Source: Bacillota bacterium
GTDB taxonomy: Bacteria; Bacillota; Sulfobacillia; Sulfobacillales; JAIMBI01
DNA: 64,000 nt
Direction of reading: 5' to 3'
Assembly: GCA_021846505.1 (NCBI GenBank)
Contig: JAJZWV010000009.1
Coordinates: 11,411-75,410 of the forward strand
The notes beneath the pieces were generated by a model. That model searched no databases. It worked only from the letters and a program-made list of their open reading frames with translations, and was not told the DNA's origin. This document shows, one piece after another, positions 1,780 through 52,102 of this stretch. The position numbers were made by a program, and so were the translations under genes. The stretch's first letter is position 1, and every line of letters starts with the position of its first letter.

Positions 1780-2553
1780 TCACCGCGCCGCCAAAACCTC
1801 CGCCAGCGTGGCCCAGTGGATTCCCGCCGGCTCGAGGCCATCCTTCACGTGCTGCGCGAGCTGGGCGGCGCCCGGCGCATCCCCGTGGATCACCAAGGTG
1901 TGCGGCGCCACGGCAATCCAGCTGCCATCCGCCGACCGCACCCGGCCATCGCGGGCCAGGCTCAGCGCTTGCGCCAGCACCTCGGCCGGATCCTCCAGCA
2001 GGGCTCCCCGCTGCCCGCGAGGCACCAGCGTGCCGTCCGGCGCATAGCGCCGGTCGACATAGCCTTCCACCGCCACCGGCACCCCCGCGGCACGGGCTTC
2101 GGCCGCCAAGGCTCCTCCGGCCGCGACCAGCATGAGCCCGGGGCGAAAGGCGGCGACCGCCGCCGCAATCGCTCGAGCGGACGTCGGGTCCACCAGCGCG
2201 CGGTTGTATAGCTGCCCGTGAGGCTTCACATGCTCCAGGGTGATGCCCTCTGCTTGGCAAAACGCAGCCAGCGCGCCGACCTGATACAGCACCGCCGTTC
2301 GAATTTCGTCGAACGACCACTGCCAGTCCCGCCGCCCAAATCCTTCGAGATCGCGATAGCCTGGGTGGGCTCCCACGCCTACCCCCCGCTGCCGCGCCAT
2401 CCGCACGGTGCGCTCCATGGTGACGGGATCGCCGGCGTGAAACCCACATGCGACACTGGCGGAGGTGACCACCGCCAGCAGCGCCGCATCGTCTCCCATC
2501 CGCCACTGTCCGAAGCTTTCTCCCAAGTCGGCCGTCAAGCTCATCCAGTGCAC
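1780..2553 (-). CDS. pxpA: 5-oxoprolinase subunit A (LamB/YcsF family)
   Basis: 257-aa ORF with N-terminal LTADLGESFG...DD...SASVACGFHAGDP typical of the LamB/YcsF family. It follows pxpB and pxpC. Confidence 0.85.
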   Translation of the reverse strand: MHWMSLTADLGESFGQWRMGDDAALLAVVTSASVACGFHAGDPVTMERTVRMARQRGVGVGAHPGYRDLEGFGRRDWQWSFDEIRTAVLYQVGALAAFCQAEGITLEHVKPHGQLYNRALVDPTSARAIAAAVAAFRPGLMLVAAGGALAAEARAAGVPVAVEGYVDRRYAPDGTLVPRGQRGALLEDPAEVLAQALSLARDGRVRSADGSWIAVAPHTLVIHGDAPGAAQLAQHVKDGLEPAGIHWATLAEVLAAR

Positions 2554-2592
2554 TTCGGGCCCTCCTCTCGTCCGACAGCACCGGCCCCGCCT

Positions 2593-3510
2593 TTAAGCGG
2601 GCGGGACGGCGTGCCCCTCCTCATGCCAGGCGGCGATCGCCTCGTCGCGAGACACAATCGCCAGGCGAGCGGTCACCCCTGGAGCCCACTGCGCCACCAG
2701 GGGCCAATCGGCCGCGATCACGACCAGCGGCACGGGGTAGCCACCAGAGATGCCGCGGCCCGGCAGCAGCACCAGACACGTACCGTCCGGTGTCACCTGG
2801 ACGGCGCCTGTGACCATGGGGACCGACAAGCGCCGGCTCCAGGCCGCCGGGCCGACGCCCTCCCATGGGGACGGGCCGCCCTCGGGATCCAGCCGCACCC
2901 CTACACGGTCCGACCGCGCCGACACGCGGTAATTTTGGCGCGCGACGCGCGCCGCCAGCCCCCCGCTGGCGTCGGGCCCGGCCGTGGCGCGGACGGTGGC
3001 GCTCAGCCGGCACGTATTTTCGACAGGCCCACGCATCGCACCAGCGACGGGGGCGCCGAGCGGCAGAATGTCGCCCGTGGCAATCGGGCGCCCGAGGCCC
3101 GCAGCCAAGTCAACGGACCGGCTTCCCAGCCACTGCTCCGTGGCAAAGCCCCCATCGATGGCGATATAGGTTCGGGCGCCTCGCCGCGCAGAGCCGGATT
3201 CCAAGACAGACCCCGCCTCAGCGCGCACGGCATGCCCCGGGGGGACCGGGGCGCCGTTGACCCGGACTTGCATATCGGCGCCGGCCACACCCAACACTGC
3301 GGCGCCCGACAGCAAGAGCCGCGGGCCCACGAGCGTCGCCTCCAGCACCGCCGCGCCCAACGCATTCCCTACCAGATAGTTCGCCCAGCGCGCGGCCCAT
3401 GGGTCTGCCGCTCCGCCCGGCGCGACGCCCCGCGACGGGCCCTGCGGACGCCCGGAATCCTGCACCGTAGTCAGCAGGCCGGGATCCAGCACGTGCACCG
3501 ATCGCGTCAT
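2593..3510 (-). CDS. pxpC: 5-oxoprolinase subunit C (allophanate hydrolase subunit 2 / KipA-like)
   Basis: The ORF contains VLDPGLLTTVQDSGRPG, typical of AHS2. Start chosen at ATG 3510, which overlaps the pxpB stop as ATGA; the longer 3630 start is probably an upstream extension. Confidence 0.8.
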   Translation of the reverse strand: MTRSVHVLDPGLLTTVQDSGRPQGPSRGVAPGGAADPWAARWANYLVGNALGAAVLEATLVGPRLLLSGAAVLGVAGADMQVRVNGAPVPPGHAVRAEAGSVLESGSARRGARTYIAIDGGFATEQWLGSRSVDLAAGLGRPIATGDILPLGAPVAGAMRGPVENTCRLSATVRATAGPDASGGLAARVARQNYRVSARSDRVGVRLDPEGGPSPWEGVGPAAWSRRLSVPMVTGAVQVTPDGTCLVLLPGRGISGGYPVPLVVIAADWPLVAQWAPGVTARLAIVSRDEAIAAWHEEGHAVPPA

Positions 3511-4187
3511 GCAGGGGCTCCAGAGTCGGCCAACTCCTGAAAGCGATGGGCAGAAACGGGCCGAAACCAAAGCTCGTCGCCTGGCTGATACAGTGTGGGC
3601 CGCTCGCGGTGAGGCTGAAACAAGTTCCACGGGGTCGCTCCAATCACGTGCCAGCCCCCCGGCCCCGGCCGGGTGTAGACGCCGGTTTGCCGGCCCGCCA
3701 CCGCCACCGCGCCGCCGGCCACCCGCGGCGCGGGGTGGTCCCGCCGGGGAAGCACCAGTGCGTCGGGCAGGGGACCGGCGTAGGGAAATCCGGCCTGAAA
3801 TCCCAGGCAGTACACGTGATACGGCCGGTTCGCGTGCAGTCGCACCACGGTCTCTGGCGACAATCCGATCCGGCGGGCCACGGCGTTCAGATCAGGCCCC
3901 CACACCCCCCCATAGCACACCGGAATCTCAATGCGCTGGGGCGGCGCACCGCGCACCCCGGACCAGGCGGCCCAGCGCACGACCCCCAACACCTCTTCGG
4001 GCGCTGCCGCATCCGGGTCAAACTCGACCAAAAGCGTGTCAAAGCCCGGCACGACGGCCACTAGGCGAGAATCCTGCCGAGCCCGGTCCACCAGGGCCCG
4101 CGCCAAGCGCTGGATGCTTCGGTTCGCCGCGCGGTCCATCCCACTGTCCCATCGCAACAGCAGCGCCCGCTCCCCCATGGGGTCCAC
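3507..4187 (-). CDS. pxpB: 5-oxoprolinase subunit B (allophanate hydrolase subunit 1 / KipI-like)
   Basis: The P-x-G-E-R-A-L-L-L...VVPGFDTLLVEFD pattern is typical of AHS1. GTG 4187 has a GGGTGGG SD-like element upstream. Alternative starts are 4178, 4322 and 4400. Confidence 0.7.
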   Translation of the reverse strand: MDPMGERALLLRWDSGMDRAANRSIQRLARALVDRARQDSRLVAVVPGFDTLLVEFDPDAAAPEEVLGVVRWAAWSGVRGAPPQRIEIPVCYGGVWGPDLNAVARRIGLSPETVVRLHANRPYHVYCLGFQAGFPYAGPLPDALVLPRRDHPAPRVAGGAVAVAGRQTGVYTRPGPGGWHVIGATPWNLFQPHRERPTLYQPGDELWFRPVSAHRFQELADSGAPA

Positions 4188-4539
4188 CCGCGCCCACCCG
4201 CCAGGCGGCGCCGGCGGCCATGGCGCCGGCGCCCCGCCGCTTCCGGCACTGCCCCGACCTGAATCGCAAATACACAACTGCGAGAGCCCCTTCAATTCGC
4301 CGCCTACGGCTTGCCGCTCCATAAGTTCATGGTAACATGGCATTTGGTAGGACCACGTGCTGCTACTGCGCATGGTCAGTAGGCAGACTAGTGCACACAC
4401 CGCAATCCCCTAAAAGCTGTGATTTTTGCGAATCGGTGCAGGGGAAGCGCCCGGACGGCCACGCCGGCCGCTTGACGGCGGATGCGCCGGGGCTAGACCG
4501 GTGACAGACCCGTGATACACCTACGAGGAGGACAACAAG

Positions 4540-5184
4540 ATGCCTTTGCTGGACAGCTTCCGGCAGCTGACCGATGCCTTGTGGCGTGGGGCACCCGAAA
4601 CCTACGATCTGAAGCCTTTCATGGAGGAGCTGGCGGCTGCCTTGGGCTGTGCGGTGGAAGTCACCGCGCCGCTGGGCGAGGCACCGCTCAGCGCTGGCCC
4701 ACCGGCCGCCAACGGGCGCAGCGGATCCGTCACCCCTACCACCAAGATGGTGCTGCAGGGCCAGTCGGGCCCCACCGGCATCCTAACCCTCCACCGCGCC
4801 GAGACCGGGCTGTCCTCTGACGAATGGCTGCTGGCGGAGTATGGGGCGACCATTATTGCGCTGGTGATGGGGCGAGCCCGAGAGGTGCGCGCCGCCAACC
4901 GCGACCGCGAGCGTGCTCAAGTTTCGGCCGCTATCGAGGCCCTGTCCTATTCGGAGCTGATTGCCGCGCAGCGCCTATTTGCCGAGATTAACGACAACCA
5001 AGGGCTGGTGGTCACCTCGCACGTCGCCGATGAAATGGGGATCACCCGGTCGGTCATCGTGAATGCCCTGCGCAAGTTAGAAAGCGCCGGAGTGATTCAA
5101 ACGCGCTCCCTGGGCATGAAGGGTACCCACATCCGCGTGCTGAATGACCAGCTGCGGGCGGCATTTGAGCGCTTGACGCTCTAG
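4540..5184 (+). CDS. codY: CodY-family GTP/BCAA-sensing transcriptional repressor, shortened N-terminal domain
   Basis: The C-terminal block LSYSEL...GITRSVIVNALRKLESAGVIQTRSLGMKGTHIRVLN closely matches the CodY wHTH as I remember it. LAEYGATIIAL also matches. SD GAGGAGG lies upstream of the ATG. Confidence 0.8.
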   Translation: MPLLDSFRQLTDALWRGAPETYDLKPFMEELAAALGCAVEVTAPLGEAPLSAGPPAANGRSGSVTPTTKMVLQGQSGPTGILTLHRAETGLSSDEWLLAEYGATIIALVMGRAREVRAANRDRERAQVSAAIEALSYSELIAAQRLFAEINDNQGLVVTSHVADEMGITRSVIVNALRKLESAGVIQTRSLGMKGTHIRVLNDQLRAAFERLTL

Positions 5185-6964: not shown

Positions 6965-9133
6965 TTACCCGGACTCTGCGGACAGCACGCTCGACCAGGT
7001 CAGGGGGCCACGCGCGGCCGTCTGCACGACGCGCGCGGTCATGGCGGCCCACGCGCTTGGGCTGGCCCCGGCGGCCCAACCCGCCAGCTGCTTCAATTCC
7101 CCCACCTGGGTGGGTGTCAGCCGCCCCAGAACCGGCAGCCCGCCCGGCCGCTGATACCCCGCCAGCGCCACCGCGCGAGCCACGGGCCCCCCCGCGTCCG
7201 CACGAATGACGGTGGCGGCCGCCAGCACGGGCACAATCGCGCGCCGCTCATCTCCAGCCGGAAATACCGACGGCCCAGGTGCCGCGGCGTTCGTGCTTCC
7301 CACCCCCAGCGCACTTTGCCACGAGGCGGCCGCCAAGCGCAGCCAAGGCGCCAGCGTGGTGGGCTGGCTGGTGGCGCATCCCCCGGCTACCAAGTCCACC
7401 GGCGCGCAGTAGGGAGAATGGCCCGGCAGGGCCACAAAAGCCGGCGTGACCGCGGGTGCCGTGAGCAGCGGGTCCACGACCAGCGGCGGCACCGAGCCGT
7501 CGTAGCCCGGCAGCCATCGCGCCAGGATTTGGTCCGCCGCCACGTAGGATGCCAGCGCCGCCGCTTGCAGCGCCGTCACTGGGCGGCGCGTGTACACGGA
7601 CCGCCCATCCACCCGCGTTGCGTGGTAGGGGCCCGACAGCCACAGCACTGCGGGCAGGATGCCCGGCGCGCCGGCTGCGGGCACGGCACTCCAATGGGGA
7701 AGGCTCTTCGGCGTGGCCGTCACCGCCCACGACAGCGAGGTCGCGAGGAAAAGGGGCCGCCCAGCCGCTCCCCCGGCCAGCAGGCGCGGATACCAAGCGC
7801 CTCCCCCCGACCAGTACACGCGGCCGCCCCCGGCATAAGCCTCCCCGCTGGTGCCCCCGACTGGAAACGGCGGCGTGGGCAGCCAGGTCGCCAGCGGCAG
7901 CAGGCGGCCGCGGTATGCAATCTCGAGCGTCCCGCGCCCTCCCGGCACGCGGACGGCCACCAGCCGCGCGGCACTGCCCGGCAGCACGCGCGCGCCCTGG
8001 TGAGCGACCGGCACCCCTTGCCCGTTCCAGGTCGCCCGCGTCACGGATAAGCCGCGGTTTAGCCAGAACCACAGCAGCGACGCCCCGCCGCCGCGAGCAG
8101 ACAGCCGCACCCGCGCGACCCCCGCCACCGCCCCGGTGGCTGCACTGACCGACACGTCAAGTGATAGGGGGCCCAGCGCCGCCACGCGGCCGCCCGCAGC
8201 CGCCGCCGAAGCCGCCGACGCGGGCAGCAGGCCCGGCGACAGAGACAGCCCGGTCACCTCGAGCCACACCACCGCCAGCGCCAGCGCACCCAGCATGCCT
8301 TGGTGCCAGCGGCGATCGCGGGCCGGGTGCGCCGAGGGCGTGGTGCGCCTCCGATCGCGCTCGCGGATCGCGGCGATCGCCAGCAGTCCGGCCGCCGCCA
8401 GCCACACCGCCCGGTTGGCCCAGAGCCATCCGGGCGTCGGCCCCAGCAGCTCGGGAGGCAGCGCCAGCCCCAGGGTCAGCAGCCCTGGGAACGGGCTCCA
8501 CAAAAACAGGCGGGGGTCCAGCGCCGCCGCCAGGGCAACCCACTTGTACTGCAGGAACGCCATCACCAGGCTGCCCAGGATTCCCATCAGGAAGTACCGG
8601 CTCCCGCCACCAGTGCGGCCCGCCAGCCACACGGCCGCTGCGGCCGTCAGCACGAGGCTCGGCCCGACGGCCAGCAGGCACCACGCGGTGTCCCAGCCCA
8701 GTGCGCTCACCAGCGGCAAGCGCGCGAGCCCAAACAGCGCGAGGGATCCCATCACGTCCACCGCCGCCAGCATGAACGACCCAACCGCGACCAACCCCGC
8801 CACCCGCCCCAGCACGTACCCGCTGGCGCTGACCGGGCGCGCAAACACGGCCACTTCGGCGTCGGCACTGCGCCAAATTTGCCCCGCGGCCAGCACGATG
8901 GCGAACGGCACCAGCATGAGACACAGCGCCAGCATCTGAATCGCCCCGTCACCCGCGGTCGGGGACCCGATAGCGGCGGCGCCGGCCACCAGCGACAGCA
9001 CCAGCAGGCTCGCCAGCTCGGTCCTCACGACCACCTCCCGCCAACTTTGGCGCCAGGTGTCGCCGGCCAGCACCCACACGGCCGTGAGGGCACGGGGCCG
9101 GGCCCAGCTACCGCCGGGGGGCGCGGCGCCCAT
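6965..9133 (-). CDS. Large membrane protein: N-terminal multi-pass (ABC-2 permease-like) region plus roughly 400-aa non-hydrophobic C-terminal domain
   Basis: 722-aa ORF. The N-terminal half is dominated by hydrophobic helices; the C-terminal half is soluble-looking. No HEXXH motif. It overlaps the upstream ATPase stop, and the start is uncertain (9133 or a downstream GTG). Confidence 0.6.
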   Translation of the reverse strand: MGAAPPGGSWARPRALTAVWVLAGDTWRQSWREVVVRTELASLLVLSLVAGAAAIGSPTAGDGAIQMLALCLMLVPFAIVLAAGQIWRSADAEVAVFARPVSASGYVLGRVAGLVAVGSFMLAAVDVMGSLALFGLARLPLVSALGWDTAWCLLAVGPSLVLTAAAAVWLAGRTGGGSRYFLMGILGSLVMAFLQYKWVALAAALDPRLFLWSPFPGLLTLGLALPPELLGPTPGWLWANRAVWLAAAGLLAIAAIRERDRRRTTPSAHPARDRRWHQGMLGALALAVVWLEVTGLSLSPGLLPASAASAAAAGGRVAALGPLSLDVSVSAATGAVAGVARVRLSARGGGASLLWFWLNRGLSVTRATWNGQGVPVAHQGARVLPGSAARLVAVRVPGGRGTLEIAYRGRLLPLATWLPTPPFPVGGTSGEAYAGGGRVYWSGGGAWYPRLLAGGAAGRPLFLATSLSWAVTATPKSLPHWSAVPAAGAPGILPAVLWLSGPYHATRVDGRSVYTRRPVTALQAAALASYVAADQILARWLPGYDGSVPPLVVDPLLTAPAVTPAFVALPGHSPYCAPVDLVAGGCATSQPTTLAPWLRLAAASWQSALGVGSTNAAAPGPSVFPAGDERRAIVPVLAAATVIRADAGGPVARAVALAGYQRPGGLPVLGRLTPTQVGELKQLAGWAAGASPSAWAAMTARVVQTAARGPLTWSSVLSAESG

Positions 9134-44689: not shown

Positions 44690-45043
44690 CTAAAGCTGAC
44701 CCTTCGCCATCCCCGCCAAGCGGCCGAAGCTCTCTTGGTCGCGCACCGCGAGATCCGCCAGCATCTTGCGGTTCAGCGTCACCCCCGCCCGCTTCAGGCC
44801 ATACATCAACGTGCTGTAAGACAAACCATGCATGCGCGCCGCCGCGTTGATCCGGATAATCCAGAGGCGCCGAAAATCGCTCTTGCGCTTTTTCCGATGC
44901 TGATACGCGTACCACAGCGCGTGCAGCACCGCTTCGTTGGCGGGGCGAAACAGCCGATGGCGGGACCCGCGGTATCCGCGCGCCATCTTGAGAATTTTTT
45001 TGTGGCGGCGGTGCCGCACCATCCCGTTCTTTACCCGAGCCAT
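44690..45043 (-). CDS. rplT: 50S ribosomal protein L20
   Basis: [19 protein letters not shown]... is diagnostic. Confidence 0.95.
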
Positions 45044-45091
45044 TTGTCTCCTCCTCGATTGCACGGTTCTCCAGCGTGACCAGCCTGAGCG

Positions 45092-45292
45092 CTACTGATC
45101 GTAAGGCATTAAAGCTTTGGTGCGCGCGGCATCGCCTTTGGCCAGCCCAGCCTTCCCGCGCAGCCGGCGGCGTCGGCTGGCATTCTTGCCGTACAGCAAG
45201 TGGTTGCGGCCGGTGCGCTTGTGCACGATTTTGCCGGTGCCGGTCACTCGCAGGCGCTTCTTGGCCCCGCGGTGCGATTTCATCTTGGGCAC
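45092..45292 (-). CDS. rpmI: 50S ribosomal protein L35
   Basis: MPKMKSHRGAKKRLRVTGTGK... is diagnostic. Confidence 0.95.
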   Translation of the reverse strand: MPKMKSHRGAKKRLRVTGTGKIVHKRTGRNHLLYGKNASRRRRLRGKAGLAKGDAARTKALMPYDQ

Positions 45293-45349
45293 GTCTCCAC
45301 ATCCTCACCGCCACCGCCAAGCGGCGCTGGCGCAACTTCTTCGGCCCGC

Positions 45350-45868
45350 TTACGCGTTGGCTGTCTTCTTGGGCGCCAGAATCATAATCATCGCGCGCCC
45401 TTCCACTCGGGCCGCCCGCTCCACCTGGCCCTGGGCCGCCACCTCTTGGGCCATTTTGTCCAACAAAACCCGTGCGTGTTCGGAGTGGACAATCTCCCGG
45501 CCGCGAAAGGTAACCGTCACTTTGACCTTGTCGCCTTCCTCCAAAAACCGGGCGGCATTGCGCTTCTTGAACTCATAGTCATGGTCGTCGATGGTGGGCC
45601 GCATCTTGATTTCCTTGATGGACACCACGTGCTGCTTCTTTCGCGACTCCCGCTCGCGCTTCTGCTGCTCGTATTTGAAGCGCCCGTAGTCCATCAGCCG
45701 ACACACCGGCGGCCGAGACGTTGGAGACACTTCCACCAAGTCCACGCGGCGCTCCACGGCCATCCTCAGCGCATCCCTCAGCGCCACAATGCCGAGCTGC
45801 TCGCCGCCATCGCCCACCAGCCGCACTTCCCGCGCACGAATCTCGTCGTTGACCCTGAGGTCCTTTAT
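45350..45868 (-). CDS. infC: Translation initiation factor IF-3, non-canonical ATA start
   Basis: The listed ORF starts inside the conserved N-terminus. Extending in frame gives I-K-D-L-R-V-N-D-E-I-R-A-R-E-V-R-L-V-G-D, the canonical IF-3 N-terminus. It begins at ATA (45866-45868), 5 nt after GGGGAGGGA. Confidence 0.85.
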   Translation of the reverse strand: MKDLRVNDEIRAREVRLVGDGGEQLGIVALRDALRMAVERRVDLVEVSPTSRPPVCRLMDYGRFKYEQQKRERESRKKQHVVSIKEIKMRPTIDDHDYEFKKRNAARFLEEGDKVKVTVTFRGREIVHSEHARVLLDKMAQEVAAQGQVERAARVEGRAMIMILAPKKTANA

Positions 45869-45900
45869 GGCGATCCCTCCCCAGATGAATTGCTAGCCAC

Positions 45901-45933
45901 CCAAACAAAAGCAGGACGGGTCACTCCCCGTCC
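45901..45933 (-). terminator. Intrinsic terminator/attenuator inside the infC leader (L20-leader-like position)
   Basis: Minus strand reads GGACGGG-GAGUGA-CCCGUCC followed by UGCUUUUGUUUGG, about 30 nt upstream of the infC SD. More stem-loops lie upstream (for example CGGAGCG-CGAG-CGCUCCG). Confidence 0.55.
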
Positions 45934-46020
45934 CAACCGGAGCGCTCGCGCTCCGCCGGATAACCTGAGCGACGATGCCGTCAGGTGAGAAGCGAACTTC
46001 TGCTTCACTATCACGTCCGC

Positions 46021-46049
46021 ATCGTAGCACAAGGACTGCGGCCGCGCAA
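46021..46049 (-). promoter_or_regulatory. Candidate sigma-A promoter for infC-rpmI-rplT
   Basis: Minus strand reads TTGCGC (46044-46049), N17, TACGAT (46021-46026). Confidence 0.35.
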
Positions 46050-46333
46050 TCGCGGCGGCGGAAAATGCCCGGACTCAGCGTGCGCGGGCCCTGAAGCCAA
46101 GGACCCGGTGTCAAAGACCCGCTCGGGGGGACCTTCGCCTGCGCGAGACGGGTGCCCCTCCTCCGTCAAACGCCGCAAAAGTCTTGTGTCGGGTGCGTTT
46201 CTGTCTGTTATGCTCGTTGCATTCGCAGCGATTCGGATCCCTCCGTGCCACCCGCCGCAGAAGGCGCAGGGGGCGAGCCTGCGGGCTCCGGACCTGCTGC
46301 GTCTGCCTTCCAATGCTGGAGGAGGTGTGTCTG

Positions 46334-48268
46334 GTGAAGAAGCCATCGGTGCGCATCACGGAGCCTTGGGTGCGGGACAATGGCGCGCTGCGCCCCGCCA
46401 GGTGGGACGAGGCGCTGGAGCGTGCGGCCTCAGGGATGGAGCAATCGCTGGCGGCCGGGGGCCCCAGCGCGGTGGGGATGTTCAGCTGTTCGAAAGCTAC
46501 CAACGAAGTGAACTTTTTGGCGCAGAAATTTGCGCGAGCTGTGCTGGGCACCAACAACATCGACAGCTGCAACCGCACATGACACGCGCCCAGCGTCGTC
46601 GGTCTGGCGACGGTGTTTGGAGCAGGCGGCGGGACCAGCTCGTACGAAGAAATCGAAAATACCGACCTCATCATCTTATGGGGTTCGAACGCGCGGGAGT
46701 CTCACCCGATTTTCTTCCACCATGTGCTGAAGGGCATTCGGAGCGGCGCGCGCCTCATGGTCGTGGATCCGCGCCGCAGTACATCGGCCCAATTTGCCCA
46801 CCTGTGGCTCGGCCTGGACGTGGGCACAGACATCGCGCTCGCCAACGCCGTGGGGCGGGAAATTATCGCGGCTGGGCTTGTGAATCACGAATTCGTGCAG
46901 AAGGCCACTGAGCACTTTGACGCCTACCGCGAGTCCGTCGAGCCGTTCACGTTGGCGGTAGGGGAAGAACTCACCGGCGTGCCCCAAGACGCCATCCAGC
47001 AGCTGGCCCATGAGTATGCCCGGGCGCCTCGGGCCCAGCTGTGCTGGACGTTGGGCATCACCGAGCACCACAACGCCGTCGACAACGTGTTTGCCCTCAT
47101 TAACCTGGCGCTGCTGACCGGGCACGTGGGGCGCTACGGCTCGGGTCTAAACCCGGTCCGCGGCCAAAACAACGTGCAGGGCGGCGGCGACATGGGCGCG
47201 CTGCCGAACAAGTTCCCGGGGTTTCAGAACGTGGCGGACGCGGCCGTGCGCGCCCGCTTCGAGGCGCGGTGGGGCCGCGCCCTGCCGCCGAAGCCCGGCT
47301 GGCACCTGTCACAGATGTTCGAGGCCATGGAGCGCGGCGACCTCACCGCCCTGTACGTCATCGGCGAGAACCCCGCGCAGTCCGAGGCCGACGCGCACCG
47401 CACAGAAAAGCTATTGACCGGCCTTGGTCACTTGGTGGTGCAGGACATGTTTATGACCCGCACCGCGGAGCTGGCCGACGTGGTGCTGCCGTCGACAGCA
47501 TCGTGGTGCGAGGCCGAGGGCACGGTGACCTCGAGTGAGCGCCGCGTCCAGCGCGTCCGCCAGGCACTGGAGCCGCCCCTGGGCACGAAAGGCGATCTGG
47601 AGATCTTGTCGCTGCTGGCGGCGCGCCTCGGCTTCCCATGGGGCATGCCCACCGCCGAGGAGGTGTGGGACGAGTGCCGGAGCCTGTCGCCGATGCACAG
47701 CGGCATGTCCTACGGCCGGCTCGAGGCGCTGAAGGGCATTCAGTGGCCCTGCCCCGACGAATCGCACCCGGGATCTCAGTTTCTGCATGGCCGCCTGTGG
47801 GACGATCCGGTGGGCGGCCCGAAAGCGGGCTTCCACCCGGTGCAGCATGAGCCGCCGGTGGATCAGCTGTCGGACGACTATCCCATCCGCCTCACCACCG
47901 GCCGGCGGCTGGACTCGTTTAACACGGGGGTTCAGTCGGGGCGCTTCTCATCGCCGCTGCGCCGCCCAGAGACCCTCAACCTGTGCCCCGAGGACATGGC
48001 GGCGCTTGGAGTGGGCGAGGGCGAGGCAGTGGCAATCCGGTCGCGGCGCGGGCGCATCGAGGCGCCGGTGCACAGCGACACGACACTGCGGCCCGGCCTA
48101 GCGTTTATGACGTTTCACTTTCCCGACCAGGTTAACACCAACCTGCTGACCGTGGATGCGTGGGATCCGCAATCGGGCACGTCGGAGTTCAAGGCCACGG
48201 CCATCGCGGTTGAGCGGCTGGCCAGCGCCGAATCCTCCGAGCCACATGCCATAAAGGTGGGTGTCTGA
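46334..48268 (+). CDS. fdhA: Formate dehydrogenase catalytic (molybdopterin) subunit lacking the N-terminal Fe-S modules; in-frame TGA (46580-46582) read as selenocysteine
   Basis: ORFs 46184-46582 and 46613-48268 share a frame and are split only by the TGA. The context is NNIDSCNRT-U-HAPSVVGL. Downstream blocks are typical of FdhA/FdsA (LILWGSNARESHPIFF, VVDPRR, RGQNNVQGGGDMGALPN). GTG 46334 is preceded by GGAGGAGG. Confidence 0.8.
46594..46612 (+). promoter_or_regulatory. SECIS-like hairpin
   Basis: CGUCGUC-GGUCU-GGCGACG: 7 bp including one G-U pair, starting 11 nt after the UGA. The GGU CUG (Gly-Leu) codons form the apex at the same codon offset as I remember for E. coli fdhF. Confidence 0.6.
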
Positions 48269-50133
48269 TGGAGCGGCATCTCTCGGCCGATGCCGCGACG
48301 GCGGACGAGCGAGCGGCCGTGGACGCCATCCTGTCGCGGCCGCCCTCGCCGTGGGTGGGCGGCGAGCGCTCGCCGCACGCCCTCCACGCGGCGCGCCGCG
48401 ACGAGAGCGCCGTTCCGCCCCGCGACCTCCTGCTCCCGGCGCTGCGGGCCCTGCAGGCTGAAGCAGGCGGCGTCAGCCGAGGCGCGATAAGCTACTTGGC
48501 AGCCCGGATGGACCTGCCCCCCTCAGACATTTACGGGGTGGCGGCATTCTACGCGCTGCTGGACGTGGACGCTCCGCCCGAGGCGGGCGCTTCCGTGAAG
48601 GTGCACCTCTGCGACGACGTAGTTTGCCAGCTGGCCGGTGCCGAAAGCCTCATCGCCAAGCTGCGGGATCGCTACGGCGCTGAGGGCGAGCCCGCTGGCG
48701 GCGTCTCGTGGCACCGAAGCCCCTGCCTCGGCCAGTGTGATCGGGGCCCTGCGGTGCTAGTGCAGCGCGCAGGCACTTATGCGGCCGATATCGCCATCGC
48801 CTCTGCCACCGCAGAGGATGTCGCCCGCGCCATCGCGGATCCCACCCCGGCACCCACGCCGCCCGCGACCGTGCCGCAGGCCGGCGACGCGAGCTTGGTG
48901 GTGCTTCGCCGCATCGGCCGCGTGGATCCGGCCGACTTAGACAGCTACCGCCACGCGGGCGGCTACGAGAGCCTTCGCCGTGCCTTGGCGCTGGGTCCGG
49001 AGTCGGTCATCCAGTGGGTGACGGACTCGGGACTGCAGGGGCGCGGCGGCGCCGCTTTTCCGACCGGCGTGAAGTGGCGGGCCGTGGCCAGCCAAGCCGC
49101 CCGCACCCACTATGTGGTCGCCAACGCCGATGAGTCAGAGCCCGGCACCTTCAAAGACCGCGTCGTGATGGAGGAAGACCCTTTCGCCGTCGTCGAAGCC
49201 CTCACCATCGCCGGATACGCCACCGGAGCGGAGCAGGGCTTTATCTATGTGCGCGGGGAATACCCGCTCGCGGCGGCGCGACTCCGGCACGCGATTGCCC
49301 GGGCGCGCCAGCGCGGGTTTCTGGGGTCCAATGTGATGGGGCGCGGCCTTTCGTTTGACATCGACGTGCGCCAGGGCGCCGGGGCCTACATCTGCGGCGA
49401 GGAGACGGCGCTCTTCAACTCGCTGGAGGGTCGCCGCGGCGAGCCCCGCAACAAGCCTCCGTTTCCCACCGTGCATGGGCTGTTTGGCAAGCCGACCGCC
49501 GTCAACAACATCGAGACGCTCCTGAATGTCCTGGCCATCCTGGCTGTCGGACCCGAGCGCTTCCGCGCCGTCGGGGCCGAGGACGCCAAGGGCACTCGGC
49601 TATTTTCGCTCTCCGGCGCCGTCATGCGCCCGGGTCTGTACGAGGCGCCTTTCGGGACGCGGCTGGGCGCCGTCATTGACATGGCGGGGGGGCTCCGCCC
49701 CGGCCGGACCCTGCAGGCAGTGCTCCTCGGCGGCGCTGCGGGATCCTTTGTGGGGCCCGAGGCCCTCGACACGCCGCTGGCCCCGGCGGCCCTGCGCCCT
49801 ATCGGCGCCACGCTGGGCTCTGGCGTGGTGGTGGTGTTTGACGACACGGCCAACTTGAGGCACACCGTGCTGCGCATCGCTCGCTTCTTCCGCGACGAGT
49901 CCTGCGGGCAGTGTGTGCCGTGCCGCGTGGGCACCGTACGCCAGGAGGAGCTGGTGGCCCGCTTGGCTGCGGGCACGCCCCGCGGCTCGGCGGCCGACGA
50001 GATCCGGCTTTTTCACGATATCGCCCAGGCTATGCGGGATGCGTCGATCTGCGGGCTCGGCCAAACAGCCGCCAGCGCTGTAGACTCCGCCATCCGGCTC
50101 GGCATCTTGGGCCGCGAAGGGGGGCCCGCCTAA
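48268..50133 (+). CDS. NuoE-like (2Fe-2S) plus NuoF-like (FMN/NAD/4Fe-4S) fusion, diaphorase subunit of NAD-dependent formate dehydrogenase
   Basis: N-terminal CDDVVC...CLGQC thioredoxin-like 2Fe-2S pattern. Then GLQGRGGAAFPTGVKW, ANADESEPGTFKDR and ESCGQCVPCR. The ATG overlaps the upstream TGA. Confidence 0.85.
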   Translation: MERHLSADAATADERAAVDAILSRPPSPWVGGERSPHALHAARRDESAVPPRDLLLPALRALQAEAGGVSRGAISYLAARMDLPPSDIYGVAAFYALLDVDAPPEAGASVKVHLCDDVVCQLAGAESLIAKLRDRYGAEGEPAGGVSWHRSPCLGQCDRGPAVLVQRAGTYAADIAIASATAEDVARAIADPTPAPTPPATVPQAGDASLVVLRRIGRVDPADLDSYRHAGGYESLRRALALGPESVIQWVTDSGLQGRGGAAFPTGVKWRAVASQAARTHYVVANADESEPGTFKDRVVMEEDPFAVVEALTIAGYATGAEQGFIYVRGEYPLAAARLRHAIARARQRGFLGSNVMGRGLSFDIDVRQGAGAYICGEETALFNSLEGRRGEPRNKPPFPTVHGLFGKPTAVNNIETLLNVLAILAVGPERFRAVGAEDAKGTRLFSLSGAVMRPGLYEAPFGTRLGAVIDMAGGLRPGRTLQAVLLGGAAGSFVGPEALDTPLAPAALRPIGATLGSGVVVVFDDTANLRHTVLRIARFFRDESCGQCVPCRVGTVRQEELVARLAAGTPRGSAADEIRLFHDIAQAMRDASICGLGQTAASAVDSAIRLGILGREGGPA

Positions 50134-50134
50134 G

Positions 50135-51085
50135 ATGGCGCCGCCGTTGCAAGTGAAACAGCTTCCCGAGCGCATCGTTCACGCCACCATCGACGGGCAG
50201 CGGGTGGCGGTGCCCGAGGGCACGACCATTCTGGCGGCCTGCCGATCCCAGGCCGCCGAGGTGCCCACGCTCTGCTTTCTCGAAACGCTCGCCCCGGTTA
50301 ACGTGTGCCGGGCTTGTGTGGTGGAGGTGGAGGGCTCGCGCGCTTTAGTGCCCGCATGCTCGCGGCCGCTCGAAACGGACATGGTGGTGTCGACCCGCTC
50401 AAAGCGGGTCGACAAAAGTCGCCGCATGGTGCTGGAGTTCCTGGCGTCGTCAGTGGACATGAGCCTGGCCGGGCCGGATGTCGAGCGGTGGATGGAAGAG
50501 TACGGGGTGGACCCGGACCGCTACGGGCCTAAAGCCGCGGCTGGCGCCGACCTCGACGCGCGGGCTGGGCGCCATGGTCCGACCGTGGGCGCCGAGCGCG
50601 CCACCGCGGCCCAGCCAGTCAAAGTCGACAACGATCTGTACGTGCGGGACTACTCTCGCTGCATTCTGTGCTACAAGTGCGTGGAGGCGTGCGGAGACCA
50701 GGCACAGCACACGTTCGCGCTGGCCGTTGCGGGCCGAGGCTTTGACGCCCACATCGCCACCGAGTTTGAGGTGCCGCTGCCCGAGTCCGCCTGCGTGTAC
50801 TGCGGCAACTGCGTGGGGGTGTGCCCCACCGGGGCGCTCATGTTCAAGAGCGAGTACGACTTGCGCCAGGCGAATCAGTGGGACGAGTCGCGCCAAACCG
50901 TCACCGACACCATCTGCCCTTACTGTGGGGTGGGCTGCACCCTCGAACTCCACGTCCAGGACAACGCCATTGTGAAGGTGACGTCGCCGATGGATCACGA
51001 GGTCACCAGCGGCCACCTCTGCATCAAGGGGCGATTTGGGTTTGAGTTTGTGCAGCAGCGCCCCCCGGCCGCGGAGCCGCGCTAG
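50135..51085 (+). CDS. NuoG/FdsA N-terminal-like Fe-S protein (2Fe-2S, two ferredoxin-type 4Fe-4S motifs, MopB-type 4Fe-4S motif), no catalytic domain
   Basis: IDGQRVAVPEGTTILAA...CRACVVEV, CILCYKCVEAC, CVYCGNCVGVCP, and CPYCGVGC...GHLCIKGRFGFEF. The protein then stops after about 12 more residues. Confidence 0.85.
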   Translation: MAPPLQVKQLPERIVHATIDGQRVAVPEGTTILAACRSQAAEVPTLCFLETLAPVNVCRACVVEVEGSRALVPACSRPLETDMVVSTRSKRVDKSRRMVLEFLASSVDMSLAGPDVERWMEEYGVDPDRYGPKAAAGADLDARAGRHGPTVGAERATAAQPVKVDNDLYVRDYSRCILCYKCVEACGDQAQHTFALAVAGRGFDAHIATEFEVPLPESACVYCGNCVGVCPTGALMFKSEYDLRQANQWDESRQTVTDTICPYCGVGCTLELHVQDNAIVKVTSPMDHEVTSGHLCIKGRFGFEFVQQRPPAAEPR

Positions 51086-51250
51086 GTCAAAGTGTTCAGG
51101 CCAAGAGGCTCCCGGTGGTGGCTCGGAGTCTGTTGGGGCACGTCCTGAGGTCATCCCGCGGTCAGGCCTAAACCCATCCTTTGGCCCCAAGTGCGGCGTT
51201 GAACCCCGCACCGCAGGTCAGGTACGTGCTCCAGGCCAGCAGGTCGGCGC

Positions 51251-52102
51251 CTAGAAGGGACTTGCGGGATGCGGCACCCATTGCCGCCACCGATCGTCAT
51301 CGGTCGTGTTGGGGGTGGTCAGCATCTCCAGCGGGACGCTGCTGATGGACAGAGTCGGCCATCGGCTGCCGGCAGCGGCCAGCAGGCTCAGAAGCGGCAG
51401 AGGCACGCACCACTTGGGCACCGGGATGCGCCGGCCCCGGGCGGCGGCCGCCCAATCCACCATCTCAGCCAGCGTTACGCGGCGGGGGCCGCCCACCTCC
51501 AGCGAGAGCGGCACCGCGTCCGACCCGTCGGCCACGATGCTCGCCAACAGCACCGCCAAGTCATCCCGGTGCACGGGGTCAAACAGGGTGTGAGGCAGGC
51601 CGGGAACCGGAGCAACAGGCAGTGCCGCCAGCCTGTCCAACCCCTTCTGCAGCGGGGACCCCGGCCCAAAGACCAGCGACGCCCGCACCACGGTTGCCCC
51701 GGGCAGGGTCTGGGCCACGGCCTTCTCCGCCGCGCGCTTGCTGTCGAAGTAGCGGCCGCGAGCTCCTCGACTGGCCGCCAGTGACGACAGGTGCACAAAC
51801 CGACGCACACCAACAGCGGCGGCCGACTCCGTCAGCCGGCGCGCGACGCCCAGGTGAGTCCGCTCAAAGGTTGTCCCTGCGAAGGGGCGCTCCCGCAAAA
51901 CGCCCACCAAATTCACCACGCCGTCCACTCCCAGGAGCAGCGGCTTTAGATCGGTGGCCAGCAGGTCTTGTGCGATTGGCTCCGCGCCAGGGCAGGCATC
52001 GCCCCGGCGCGACACCGCCACCACGCGGTGCCCGGCGTGTAGCAGTGCGGCCTGCACCGCCTGCCCCACATAGCCGCTGGCGCCTGCCACCAGATATCGC
52101 AC
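51251..52102 (-). CDS. NAD(P)H-binding atypical SDR (NmrA/NDUFA9-like)
   Basis: LVAGASGYVGQAV Rossmann motif. GTG 52102 is preceded by GAGGAAGAGGTGAGG; ATG 52156 is the alternative. Confidence 0.65.
   Translation of the reverse strand: MRYLVAGASGYVGQAVQAALLHAGHRVVAVSRRGDACPGAEPIAQDLLATDLKPLLLGVDGVVNLVGVLRERPFAGTTFERTHLGVARRLTESAAAVGVRRFVHLSSLAASRGARGRYFDSKRAAEKAVAQTLPGATVVRASLVFGPGSPLQKGLDRLAALPVAPVPGLPHTLFDPVHRDDLAVLLASIVADGSDAVPLSLEVGGPRRVTLAEMVDWAAAARGRRIPVPKWCVPLPLLSLLAAAGSRWPTLSISSVPLEMLTTPNTTDDDRWRQWVPHPASPF

Follow-up and report, generated by a model that had tools for sequence, protein, structure and literature searches.

Formate dehydrogenase FDH3 (FdhA3/FdhB3/FdhC3) of Actinomycetospora chiangmaiensis DSM 45062, a member of the Pseudonocardiaceae, is the closest described system to the operon analyzed here and has the same architecture (Rohwerder et al., 2020; PMC7176365). 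Its subunits (WP_084681743.1, WP_018332443.1 and WP_018332444.1) measure 640, 614 and 316 aa: the alpha subunit consists of the metallopterin domain only and carries selenocysteine at position 80 (U80), the beta subunit is a NuoE-NuoF fusion, and the third, a "separate but homologous" Fe-S protein, corresponds to the N-terminal Fe-S domain that fused alpha subunits contain (Table 1 and Supplementary Fig. S4 of PMC7176365). All three were found by proteomics and were co-induced, and A. chiangmaiensis removes formate in a selenium-dependent manner (PMC7176365). The paper leaves three points without comment: that FS0, the MopB-type [4Fe-4S] cluster, sits on the gamma subunit, that the His-ligated cluster is missing, and how widely the layout is spread.

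The FdsGBA(D) enzymes of R. capsulatus and Cupriavidus necator (PDB 6tg9/6tga; PMC7171172) have a redox chain that runs through Mo-bisPGD, FS0, two [4Fe-4S] clusters, a [2Fe-2S] cluster, the NuoF [4Fe-4S] cluster and FMN. The same set of sites is found in the operon described here, and both systems also have an off-path NuoE-type [2Fe-2S] site. In the electron path of R. capsulatus FdsA, the His-ligated cluster A4 lies off-pathway, at the dimer interface (PMC7171172). FdsABG(D) differs from our operon in having a single alpha chain, which is here cut between the equivalents of FdsA residues 306 and 308, in using Cys where Sec is found here, and in possessing the His-Cys3 cluster A4 (PF10588), which is absent here. 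Its NuoE- and NuoF-like parts both recur in our operon but are fused in one 621-aa protein, and the operon comprises three genes in a permuted order, none of which is fdsD or fdsC. The tungsten enzyme Fdh1AB (FDH1) of Methylorubrum extorquens AM1 (PDB 7vw6/7e5z) has a NuoE-NuoF beta subunit, as here, and the NAD linkage and cytoplasmic location that we propose here; unlike the split Sec alpha subunit of our operon, however, its alpha subunit is a Cys-type protein of 989-995 aa in which the N-terminal Fe-S module is part of the one chain. HylABC-FdhF2 of Gottschalkia (Clostridium) acidurici and HoxFU of the NAD-reducing [NiFe] hydrogenases likewise place a NuoG/HoxU-like Fe-S polypeptide beside a NuoF-like flavoprotein, but there the catalytic subunit retains its own proximal cluster, whereas here FS0 has moved to the Fe-S subunit. 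A further difference is that the Hyl enzymes bifurcate electrons and carry extra ferredoxin domains, which the fused diaphorase here does not have.

Operon layout and subunit composition

We analyzed a 64-kb window (the whole stretch of DNA under study) that derives from a metagenome and belongs to a mine-drainage bacterium. This host is a high-GC member of the Bacillota near Thermaerobacter, in contrast to the Pseudonocardiaceae host of FDH3. Three coupled genes lie on the + strand of the window, encoding a catalytic subunit (CAT, 46334-48268), a diaphorase (EF, 48268-50133) and an Fe-S subunit (FS, 50135-51085), with a divergent infC on one side and a convergent epimerase gene on the other. 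The C-terminal half of the alpha subunit is thereby followed by the diaphorase and then by the N-terminal Fe-S half. A sequence-only reading had arrived at these open reading frames and this order, with a 1-nt overlap, a 1-nt gap and a break in the alpha subunit just past the MopB [4Fe-4S] motif, and on all of these points our analysis agrees: the order follows from the open reading frames and their Pfam content, and the packing can be read directly as TGATG at the CAT stop/EF start and TAA-G-ATG at the EF/FS junction. What that reading had missed is that the CAT frame, although correctly placed, is open only when the TGA at codon 83 is read as selenocysteine. The overlap of stop and start codons at one junction and their proximity at the other suggest that the genes are translationally coupled and that the three subunits are made in equal amounts. 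By subunit lengths, Sec position, domain descriptions and the same cytoplasmic three-subunit layout, the operon resembles FDH3 closely (CAT, 644 aa with U83, against 640 aa with U80; EF, 621 against 614 aa; FS, 316 aa in both).

CAT is an FdhA3-like protein comprising the Mo/W-bisPGD domains, matched by Pfam Molybdopterin at residues 7-430 (PF00384, 3e-67) and Molydop_binding (PF01568, 9e-25), with U83-H84 and with R276 in RGQNNVQG. It therefore has the Sec-His ligand pair, the Arg in RGQ and both pterin domains of a Mo/W-bisPGD formate dehydrogenase alpha subunit, the class being defined by the class I C/U-H ... RGQ pattern (PMC8808070) and by NCBIfam TIGR01591. Its PDB matches are FdhF, FdhH and FdsA (E 1e-139 to 1e-123). 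Pfam found no Molybdop_Fe4S4 (PF04879), the FS0 [4Fe-4S] domain, in CAT. The GTG start of CAT is preceded, 7 nt upstream, by a Shine-Dalgarno-like GGAGGAGG read from the sequence (46319..46326, + strand); ATG 46313, where public gene calls begin CAT, lacks a site of this kind.

FS is FdhC3-like and contains, by Pfam, Fer2_4, Fer4_Nqo3/2x[4Fe-4S] and a Molybdop_Fe4S4 domain that ends at residue 307 of 316. Its ligands form a [2Fe-2S] site (C47/58/61/75), two ferredoxin-type [4Fe-4S] sites (C176/179/182/186 and C220/223/226/230) and, at the C-terminus, the MopB FS0 [4Fe-4S] site (C261/264/268/296) with Lys298. All 16 of these cysteines and K298 were invariant among 44 relatives. The His-Cys3 cluster A4 has no counterpart in FS by Pfam or by alignment to FdsA: PF10588 is missing, SSVDMSL stands in place of HPLDCLTC of FdsA, and the alignment with the 44 relatives contained no conserved Cys/His motif in residues 95-170. 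A fused formate dehydrogenase alpha subunit that lacks A4 also exists, at 35% identity. The best NCBIfam matches of FS, all under cutoff, were [FeFe]-hydrogenase A6, HoxU and NuoG. An AlphaFold2 model of FS from the 44-sequence alignment was too poor for an interface check (mean pLDDT 59, pTM 0.47).

EF is FdhB3-like and is, as the earlier reading had it, a NuoE-NuoF fusion, with Pfam 2Fe-2S_thioredx, Complex1_51K, SLBB and NADH_4Fe-4S domains, NCBIfam matches to nuoF_fam and nuoE_fam, and PDB matches to NuoF/HydB/FdsB/Fdh1B. Its nine cysteines are at positions 115, 120, 153, 157, 376, 546, 549, 552 and 595, of which the first four suit a [2Fe-2S] site and the last four a [4Fe-4S] site, while GRGGA (258) and ADESEPG (287) suit an FMN/NAD site. 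Neither Pfam nor the cysteine list revealed a C-terminal ferredoxin-type 2x[4Fe-4S] domain in EF, the chain ending 11 residues past NADH_4Fe-4S.

Placed together, FS and CAT reconstitute one alpha subunit without a seam. FS residues 14-309 align with R. capsulatus FdsA 24-306, the best PDB match of FS, and CAT residues 7-627 align with FdsA 308-932; identity over the Fe-S module is only about 34%. The TIGR01591 profile is divided in the same way, with positions 1-52 covered by FS (57.7 bits) and 52-672 by CAT (632.2 bits). The summed 689.9 bits exceed the curated cutoff of 666.25, which neither protein reaches alone, and FS0 is on another polypeptide than the catalytic domains. The simplest account of the split is that an FdsA-like alpha gene, once fused, underwent fission secondarily; as one possible route to the gene order, we hypothesize that a nuoEF-fdhA unit was duplicated in tandem and then trimmed.

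Selenocysteine codon and SECIS hairpin

The in-frame TGA at 46580..46582 (+ strand) falls at the canonical selenocysteine site, residue 83 in the motif CNRT-U-HAPSV. It was present in 62/62 scorable related loci, and four DNA runs contained no variants at this codon. Decoding would proceed via an fdhF-type SECIS hairpin lying immediately 3', defined here as a hairpin with a GGUC-type apical loop within ~15-35 nt of an in-frame UGA. At 46595..46611 (+ strand) we found such an upper hairpin, GUCGUC-GGUCU-GGCGAC, with its stem at +16..+21 and +27..+32 and the loop GGUCU between. Counting from the U of UGA, G23 and U24 lie in the loop, as in E. coli fdhF.

The support for this hairpin comes from covariation, since folding of the single sequence did not pick it: the minimum free energy fold of 46580-46640 left it unformed and was no better than shuffles (z = 0.39). 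In the alignment, all six pairs were formed in 59 distinct sequences, and pair 18-30, unpaired in none, had made a compensatory switch from CG to GC in eight of them. An Rfam E-value scan of 45000-52000 returned no SECIS family, only a sub-threshold L20 leader and chance miRNA/snoRNA matches. The 64-kb window contains no selA, selB, selD or tRNA-Sec, and a search of it for SelB and SelD motifs gave nothing credible.

Distribution and prior description

A comparison of 80 related loci from about ten phyla gave the order CAT, EF, FS in 65 of them, and 13 of the remaining 15 were cut by a contig end, so that the three genes were linked in 65/67 loci with enough flank. The two departures from strict linkage are L042, with an orphan FS gene, and L043, with EF and FS and no CAT nearby. 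Unrelated genes were inserted between CAT and EF in 11 loci, and fdhD adjoined the operon in 43; no FdhD homologue occurs within the 64-kb window. Among cultured bacteria, Streptomyces and Thermopolyspora have annotated Cys-type operons with this order and with fdhD next in line, and family members from the Pseudonocardiaceae are 72% identical to FS.

The sequence-only reading had not known the permuted arrangement as an established one and had proposed a survey of related genomes. That view fails, because the same split is common (65/80 loci), annotated in cultured actinomycetes and already described (PMC7176365); being both published and widespread, the architecture is not new in kind. The split goes without mention in the reviews and phylogenies consulted (PMC13397495, PMC10100899, PMC8808070), and in the literature we found no description of an FS0 cluster working across a subunit interface or of the loss of the His-ligated cluster. 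A tblastn search of plasmids returned only classical fused FdsA/NuoG (32-35% identity). Metatranscriptomes from the same study as the metagenome gave no coverage of this organism or its operon; all they contained was a conserved NuoF word of 30 nt that belongs to other organisms.

Proposed enzyme, alternatives and annotation

We consider it probable (about 0.85) from sequence comparison that the product of the operon is a cytoplasmic, selenocysteine-containing Mo/W-bisPGD formate dehydrogenase, linked to NAD(P)+ and of the three-subunit FDH3 type. In such a complex, formate would be oxidized at the Mo/W centre of CAT (Sec83, His84, Arg276), and electrons would cross the subunit interface to the FS0 [4Fe-4S] cluster and Lys298 at the C-terminus of FS. 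They would then pass through the two ferredoxin-type [4Fe-4S] clusters and the [2Fe-2S] cluster of FS and enter the NuoF part of EF, where a [4Fe-4S] cluster and FMN would relay them to NAD+. Complex formation, this path, NAD+ as acceptor and the catalytic direction are what we infer from the subunit contents. The main chain would be complete despite the missing His-ligated cluster, A4 being off-pathway in R. capsulatus.

That the split might be an artefact, either a misassembled or rearranged contig or a decaying pseudogene in which the TGA is a true stop, was raised by the metagenomic origin of the window and by gene callers breaking CAT into pieces of 89 and 551 aa. Three independent assemblies (ENA, NCBI and Logan contigs) nevertheless agree on the three genes, and in four runs both junctions were crossed by unitigs, strain variants included; a single X1 unitig spanned them over 47669-51115 with 0 differences, and a single X3 unitig also spanned them, over 47047-50313. 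These results exclude the misassembly that the sequence-only reading had asked to have checked. Recurrence of the order in 65 loci, spread over many phyla and with proteins 63-83% identical, the TGA with its covarying hairpin in 62/62 loci and the invariance of all cofactor ligands likewise argue against decay, and the artefact reading is refuted. A genuine formate dehydrogenase could instead belong with HylABC-FdhF2 / HydABC and bifurcate or confurcate electrons, using ferredoxin together with NAD. HylA is a NuoG-like Fe-S protein that stands as a subunit of its own beside a formate dehydrogenase (PMC5736913), and the NuoF part finds its best PDB matches in 9bov_B, NfnB and HydB (E 1e-114 to 1e-111), which belong to bifurcating enzymes, but these matches cover only the NuoF core, residues 209-610. 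HydB and HylB carry a C-terminal ferredoxin-type 2x[4Fe-4S] domain, whereas EF stops at residue 621 straight past NADH_4Fe-4S, a layout that fits the non-bifurcating Fdh1B/HoxF type of NuoE-NuoF fusion, and we regard bifurcation as improbable.

Slightly less probable still is that FS and EF form a general HoxFU-like diaphorase module serving other partners, with which the Mo subunit associates loosely or alternatively. The JGI name for the Fe-S protein (HndD), the sub-cutoff [FeFe]-hydrogenase A6, HoxU and NuoG matches of FS, the orphan FS gene of L042 and the 11 loci with genes between CAT and EF would all suit such a module. FS, however, ends in the MopB-specific FS0 domain and the Lys of the CxKG motif, which fits only beside a pterin subunit without them, and CAT misses exactly the 52 profile positions that FS supplies. 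The linkage in 65/67 loci and the co-induction of the three A. chiangmaiensis subunits also point to a dedicated partnership, and we retain the three-subunit formate dehydrogenase as our reading of the operon.

A wider and distinctly tentative proposal, which we think has less than an even chance of being right, is that FDH3-type enzymes form a structurally distinct clade in which the MopB fold has been cut, FS0 and its Lys act in trans and the inter-protomer A4 is gone. With FS0 in trans across the subunit interface, the Sec/Mo subunit could mature (Moco insertion, FdhD sulfuration) and dock on a HoxFU-like diaphorase as a separate module. The clade might have a single origin by nuoEF-fdhA duplication and permutation, and could be a major overlooked formate oxidizer of aerobic soil and mine-drainage bacteria in about ten phyla. 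We know of no structure, enzymology or curated family for it. The family amounts to a natural experiment, in which a MopB enzyme has its proximal cluster on a different chain, and it comes in matched Sec and Cys versions; its hosts are presumed to be mostly aerobic. These properties would make it a convenient system for the modular assembly of NAD-linked CO2/formate catalysts and for the Sec-versus-Cys question.

For the window itself, the meaning is mainly one of annotation correction. In public gene calls CAT is broken at the Sec codon and the three proteins bear generic names ("molybdopterin oxidoreductase family protein", "2Fe-2S iron-sulfur cluster-binding protein", "HndD", "YjgC"), so that formate oxidation capacity is under-called in many metagenome-assembled genomes. 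Matches of 362-441 aa from a search of 50% representatives, considered as further splits, were rejected, as they are N-terminal pieces of fused Sec enzymes cut at UGA; their tails end in ...NNIDHCARL.

The split alpha subunit and its operon

The sequence-only reading held that a formate dehydrogenase (FDH) alpha subunit is split here, and Pfam domains together with tiling on Rhodobacter capsulatus FdsA and on a curated Fdh-alpha model bear out this structural interpretation. The Mo/W-pterin catalytic protein (CAT; 46334-48268, forward strand) contains Molybdopterin, from residue 7, and Molydop_binding, and Pfam found no Molybdop_Fe4S4 in it. It is followed on the same strand by a NuoE-NuoF fusion (EF; 48268-50133) with 2Fe-2S_thioredx, Complex1_51K, SLBB and NADH_4Fe-4S domains, and by an Fe-S protein (FS; 50135-51085) with Fer2_4, a ferredoxin-type dicluster (Fer4_Nqo3) and Molybdop_Fe4S4, the last ending at residue 307 of 316. 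The stop of CAT overlaps the start of EF in TGATG, and one base separates the EF stop from the FS start. The operon is flanked by a divergent infC-rpmI-rplT on one side and a convergent NAD-dependent epimerase gene on the other.

In alignments to solved structures, FS residues 14-309 correspond to R. capsulatus FdsA 24-306 and CAT residues 7-627 to FdsA 308-932. The NCBIfam model TIGR01591 (672 positions, cutoff 666.25) was divided in the same way, with FS residues 259-310 covering positions 1-52 (57.7 bits) and CAT residues 6-626 covering positions 52-672 (632.2 bits); each protein alone falls below the cutoff, while their sum exceeds it. Thus, by two independent tests the junction is seamless: the two proteins tile exactly, with no segment lost or doubled, and tail and head sequence adds about 13 residues at the break. 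This break falls directly past the last cysteine of the MopB [4Fe-4S] cluster (FS0) and the C-x-K-G Lys (HLCIKGRFGFEF), so that the cluster proximal to the pterin and this Lys reside on FS and the pterin site on CAT.

The layout is not an assembly artefact. We found the identical three-gene arrangement in three independent assemblies (an ENA assembly, NCBI GCA_027336015.1 and a Logan assembly), and four DNA runs from mine drainage contain single unitigs that extend across both gene junctions, including a unitig of run X1 (47669-51115) with 0 differences and one of run X3 (47047-50313) that represents a strain variant with 23 differences. Metatranscriptomes from the same study had no coverage of this organism. 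The strain variant co-occurs in runs X3 and X4 (45800-51400; about 23 differences in 3.3 kb) and lacks one base at intergenic position 46060. Upstream of infC-rpmI-rplT is an L20-leader-like stretch, with a sub-threshold Rfam match to RF00558 (45902-46011, reverse strand; 33.7 bits against a gathering threshold of 58.7, E 9e-4) and a terminator-like hairpin at 45935-45912.

A widespread and previously published enzyme type

The permuted order of C-terminal half, diaphorase and N-terminal half had not been recognised as a described standard, but the view that it is non-standard did not survive a survey of relatives. Searching 5.8 billion proteins with FS returned at least 8000 candidates, the best 120 of which are all 302-392 aa long (117 of them 302-341 aa) and 69-99% identical; the closest named relative among the matches listed is a Thermaerobacter sp. 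MAG, whose cluster representative is 83% identical. At least 537 stretches of GTDB species representatives encode a relative, and the best 80 of these loci come from Bacillota, Actinomycetota, Acidobacteriota, Dormibacterota, Gemmatimonadota, Chloroflexota, Verrucomicrobiota, Planctomycetota, Binatia and Armatimonadota. Using tblastn with the three window proteins, we observed that 65 of the 80 carry CAT, EF and FS in this order and on a single strand; of the other 15, 13 are cut by a contig end, and only L042 and L043 depart from this order. Locus L042, from a Chthonomonadaceae MAG, has an orphan FS-type gene (6974-7984, 336 aa), and the 7 kb to each side of it contain no homologue of CAT or EF.

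An insert of 0.6-3.1 kb separates CAT and EF in 11 loci, mostly from Chloroflexota. Six Chloroflexota loci (L068 at 1900-4900, L029, L050, L065, L072 and L080) have 1.7-3.1 kb of unrelated genes there and keep the FDH gene order; judging ORFs by eye, the L068 insert encodes a putative PIN-like toxin with an opposite-strand antitoxin, plus a membrane protein. The fdhD gene adjoins the operon in 43 related loci, and no fdhD homologue was found anywhere in the window (1-64000).

Searching with CAT also revealed a cysteine branch of 69 full-length proteins (633-684 aa, CNRT-C-HAPS), found in cultured members of Streptomyces, Nonomuraea, Saccharopolyspora, Actinomadura, Marinactinospora and Thermopolyspora, and some of which are annotated as "NAD-dependent formate dehydrogenase catalytic subunit" or "formate dehydrogenase subunit alpha." In both Thermopolyspora flexuosa and an assembly of Streptomyces reads, CAT, EF and FS again stand in this order and are followed by fdhD; the FS of T. 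flexuosa shares 62% identity with the window FS.

The same architecture has been described as the three-subunit FDH3 of Actinomycetospora chiangmaiensis, comprising FdhA3 (640 aa, U80), FdhB3 (614 aa; NuoE-like N-terminal and NuoF-like C-terminal domains) and FdhC3 (316 aa), "a separate but homologous" protein that stands in for the Fe-S domain at the N-terminus; proteomics detected all three, up 2-3-fold on 2-hydroxyisobutyrate, and formate removal was selenium-dependent (Rohwerder et al., 2020; PMC7176365 and supplement). Sec-containing catalytic subunits in Sulfobacillus have also been noted to show synteny with homologues of NuoEFG (Justice et al., 2014; PMC4378227). The arrangement therefore belongs to a three-subunit Sec/Cys formate dehydrogenase type that is widespread, annotated and already in the literature, and of which the window provides a further example, from a mine-drainage member of the Bacillota. 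The sequence-only reading had itself named such a common, annotated occurrence as a finding that would refute it. Since the FDH reviews and MopB phylogenies consulted (PMC13397495, PMC10100899, PMC8808070) do not mention the split, and no NCBIfam model matches CAT, EF or FS at its cutoff, the kind is known but hardly studied.

A predicted selenocysteine codon and its hairpin

The CAT frame is open only with readthrough of TGA 46580-46582, whose context, CNRT-U-HAPSV, marks the position that supplies the metal ligand in formate dehydrogenases. TGA occupies this position in 62 of 62 scorable related loci, and none of the four DNA runs contains a variant of it. A hairpin (GUCGUC-GGUCU-GGCGAC) starts 16 nt downstream of the U of UGA, with loop bases G23 and U24 that fit the E. 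coli fdhF SECIS numbering. All six pairs form in every one of 59 distinct sequences; pair 18-30 changes from CG to GC in 8 and is unpaired in none, and pairs 17-31 and 20-28 vary via G-U. These base changes are synonymous in Val and Ala codons, which argues for selection on the RNA. Single-sequence folding did not select the hairpin, Rfam gave no match for it, and we found no tRNA-Sec or credible selB or selD motif within the 64-kb window. Public gene calls interrupt CAT at the Sec codon, giving fragments of 89 and 551 aa (46313-46582 and 46613-48268), and start it at ATG 46313, which has no ribosome-binding site, as opposed to GTG 46334, which on the forward strand lies 7 nt behind GGAGGAGG (read from the sequence).

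Proposed electron path and origin of the split

In R. capsulatus FDH, the chain runs from bis-MGD through A1 (FS0), A2, A3, A5 ([2Fe-2S]) and B6 to FMN; off this path lie the NuoE-type G7 and, at the dimer interface, the His-ligated A4 (PMC7171172). Ligands of all on-path clusters are present in the window proteins and invariant in 44 relatives, as seen for FS0 (FS C261/264/268/296 and K298), two [4Fe-4S] clusters (FS C176/179/182/186 and C220/223/226/230) and the [2Fe-2S] cluster (FS C47/58/61/75); EF has a further [4Fe-4S] site (C546/549/552/595) plus FMN/NAD motifs. By comparison with R. capsulatus, electrons would pass from the CAT pterin to FS0, the two [4Fe-4S] clusters and the [2Fe-2S] cluster on FS, and then to the EF [4Fe-4S] cluster and FMN. 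We infer the three-protein complex, as we do its electron acceptor and catalytic direction.

The His-Cys3 [4Fe-4S] cluster A4 is absent from FS, in which Pfam found no PF10588 domain; FdsA reads HPLDCLTC in this region, whereas the window FS reads SSVDMSL. By analogy, this loss would leave the main electron path intact, and A4 is likewise missing from a fused FDH alpha (P0286, 35% identity). The A4 region is replaced by a low-confidence linker, in which FS relatives have a His-rich patch (consensus PGHHH, around FS residues 140-150); the window FS shows just RHGP at this place, and H147 is almost invariant. An AlphaFold model of FS was too poor in quality for use.

We also considered an electron-bifurcating enzyme, as the NuoF core of EF scores best against HydB and NfnB. 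However, EF has no extra ferredoxin domain, which makes bifurcation the less likely function and a simple NAD(P)-linked enzyme the more likely one.

Throughout the superfamily, FS0 forms an integral portion of the MopB fold at its N-terminus, which makes secondary fission the best reading of the split. Purely as a hypothesis, the order C-terminal half, nuoEF, N-terminal half could have come from a tandem nuoEF-fdhA duplication followed by loss of the outer parts.

Other combinations of these modules were also seen. In the metagenomic protein P0147 (511 aa), a C-terminal NuoF part (SLBB, NADH_4Fe-4S) is joined directly to a complete FS module in one ORF, representing either a natural EF-FS fusion or a contig frameshift. 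Three NuoG-like proteins (P0249, P0255 and P0231; 838-976 aa), in which the FDH active-site motif is absent, combine Fer2_4, ferredoxin clusters, Molybdop_Fe4S4 and Molybdopterin without Molydop_binding, and are fused at their C-termini to a NuoE-type 2Fe-2S_thioredx domain.
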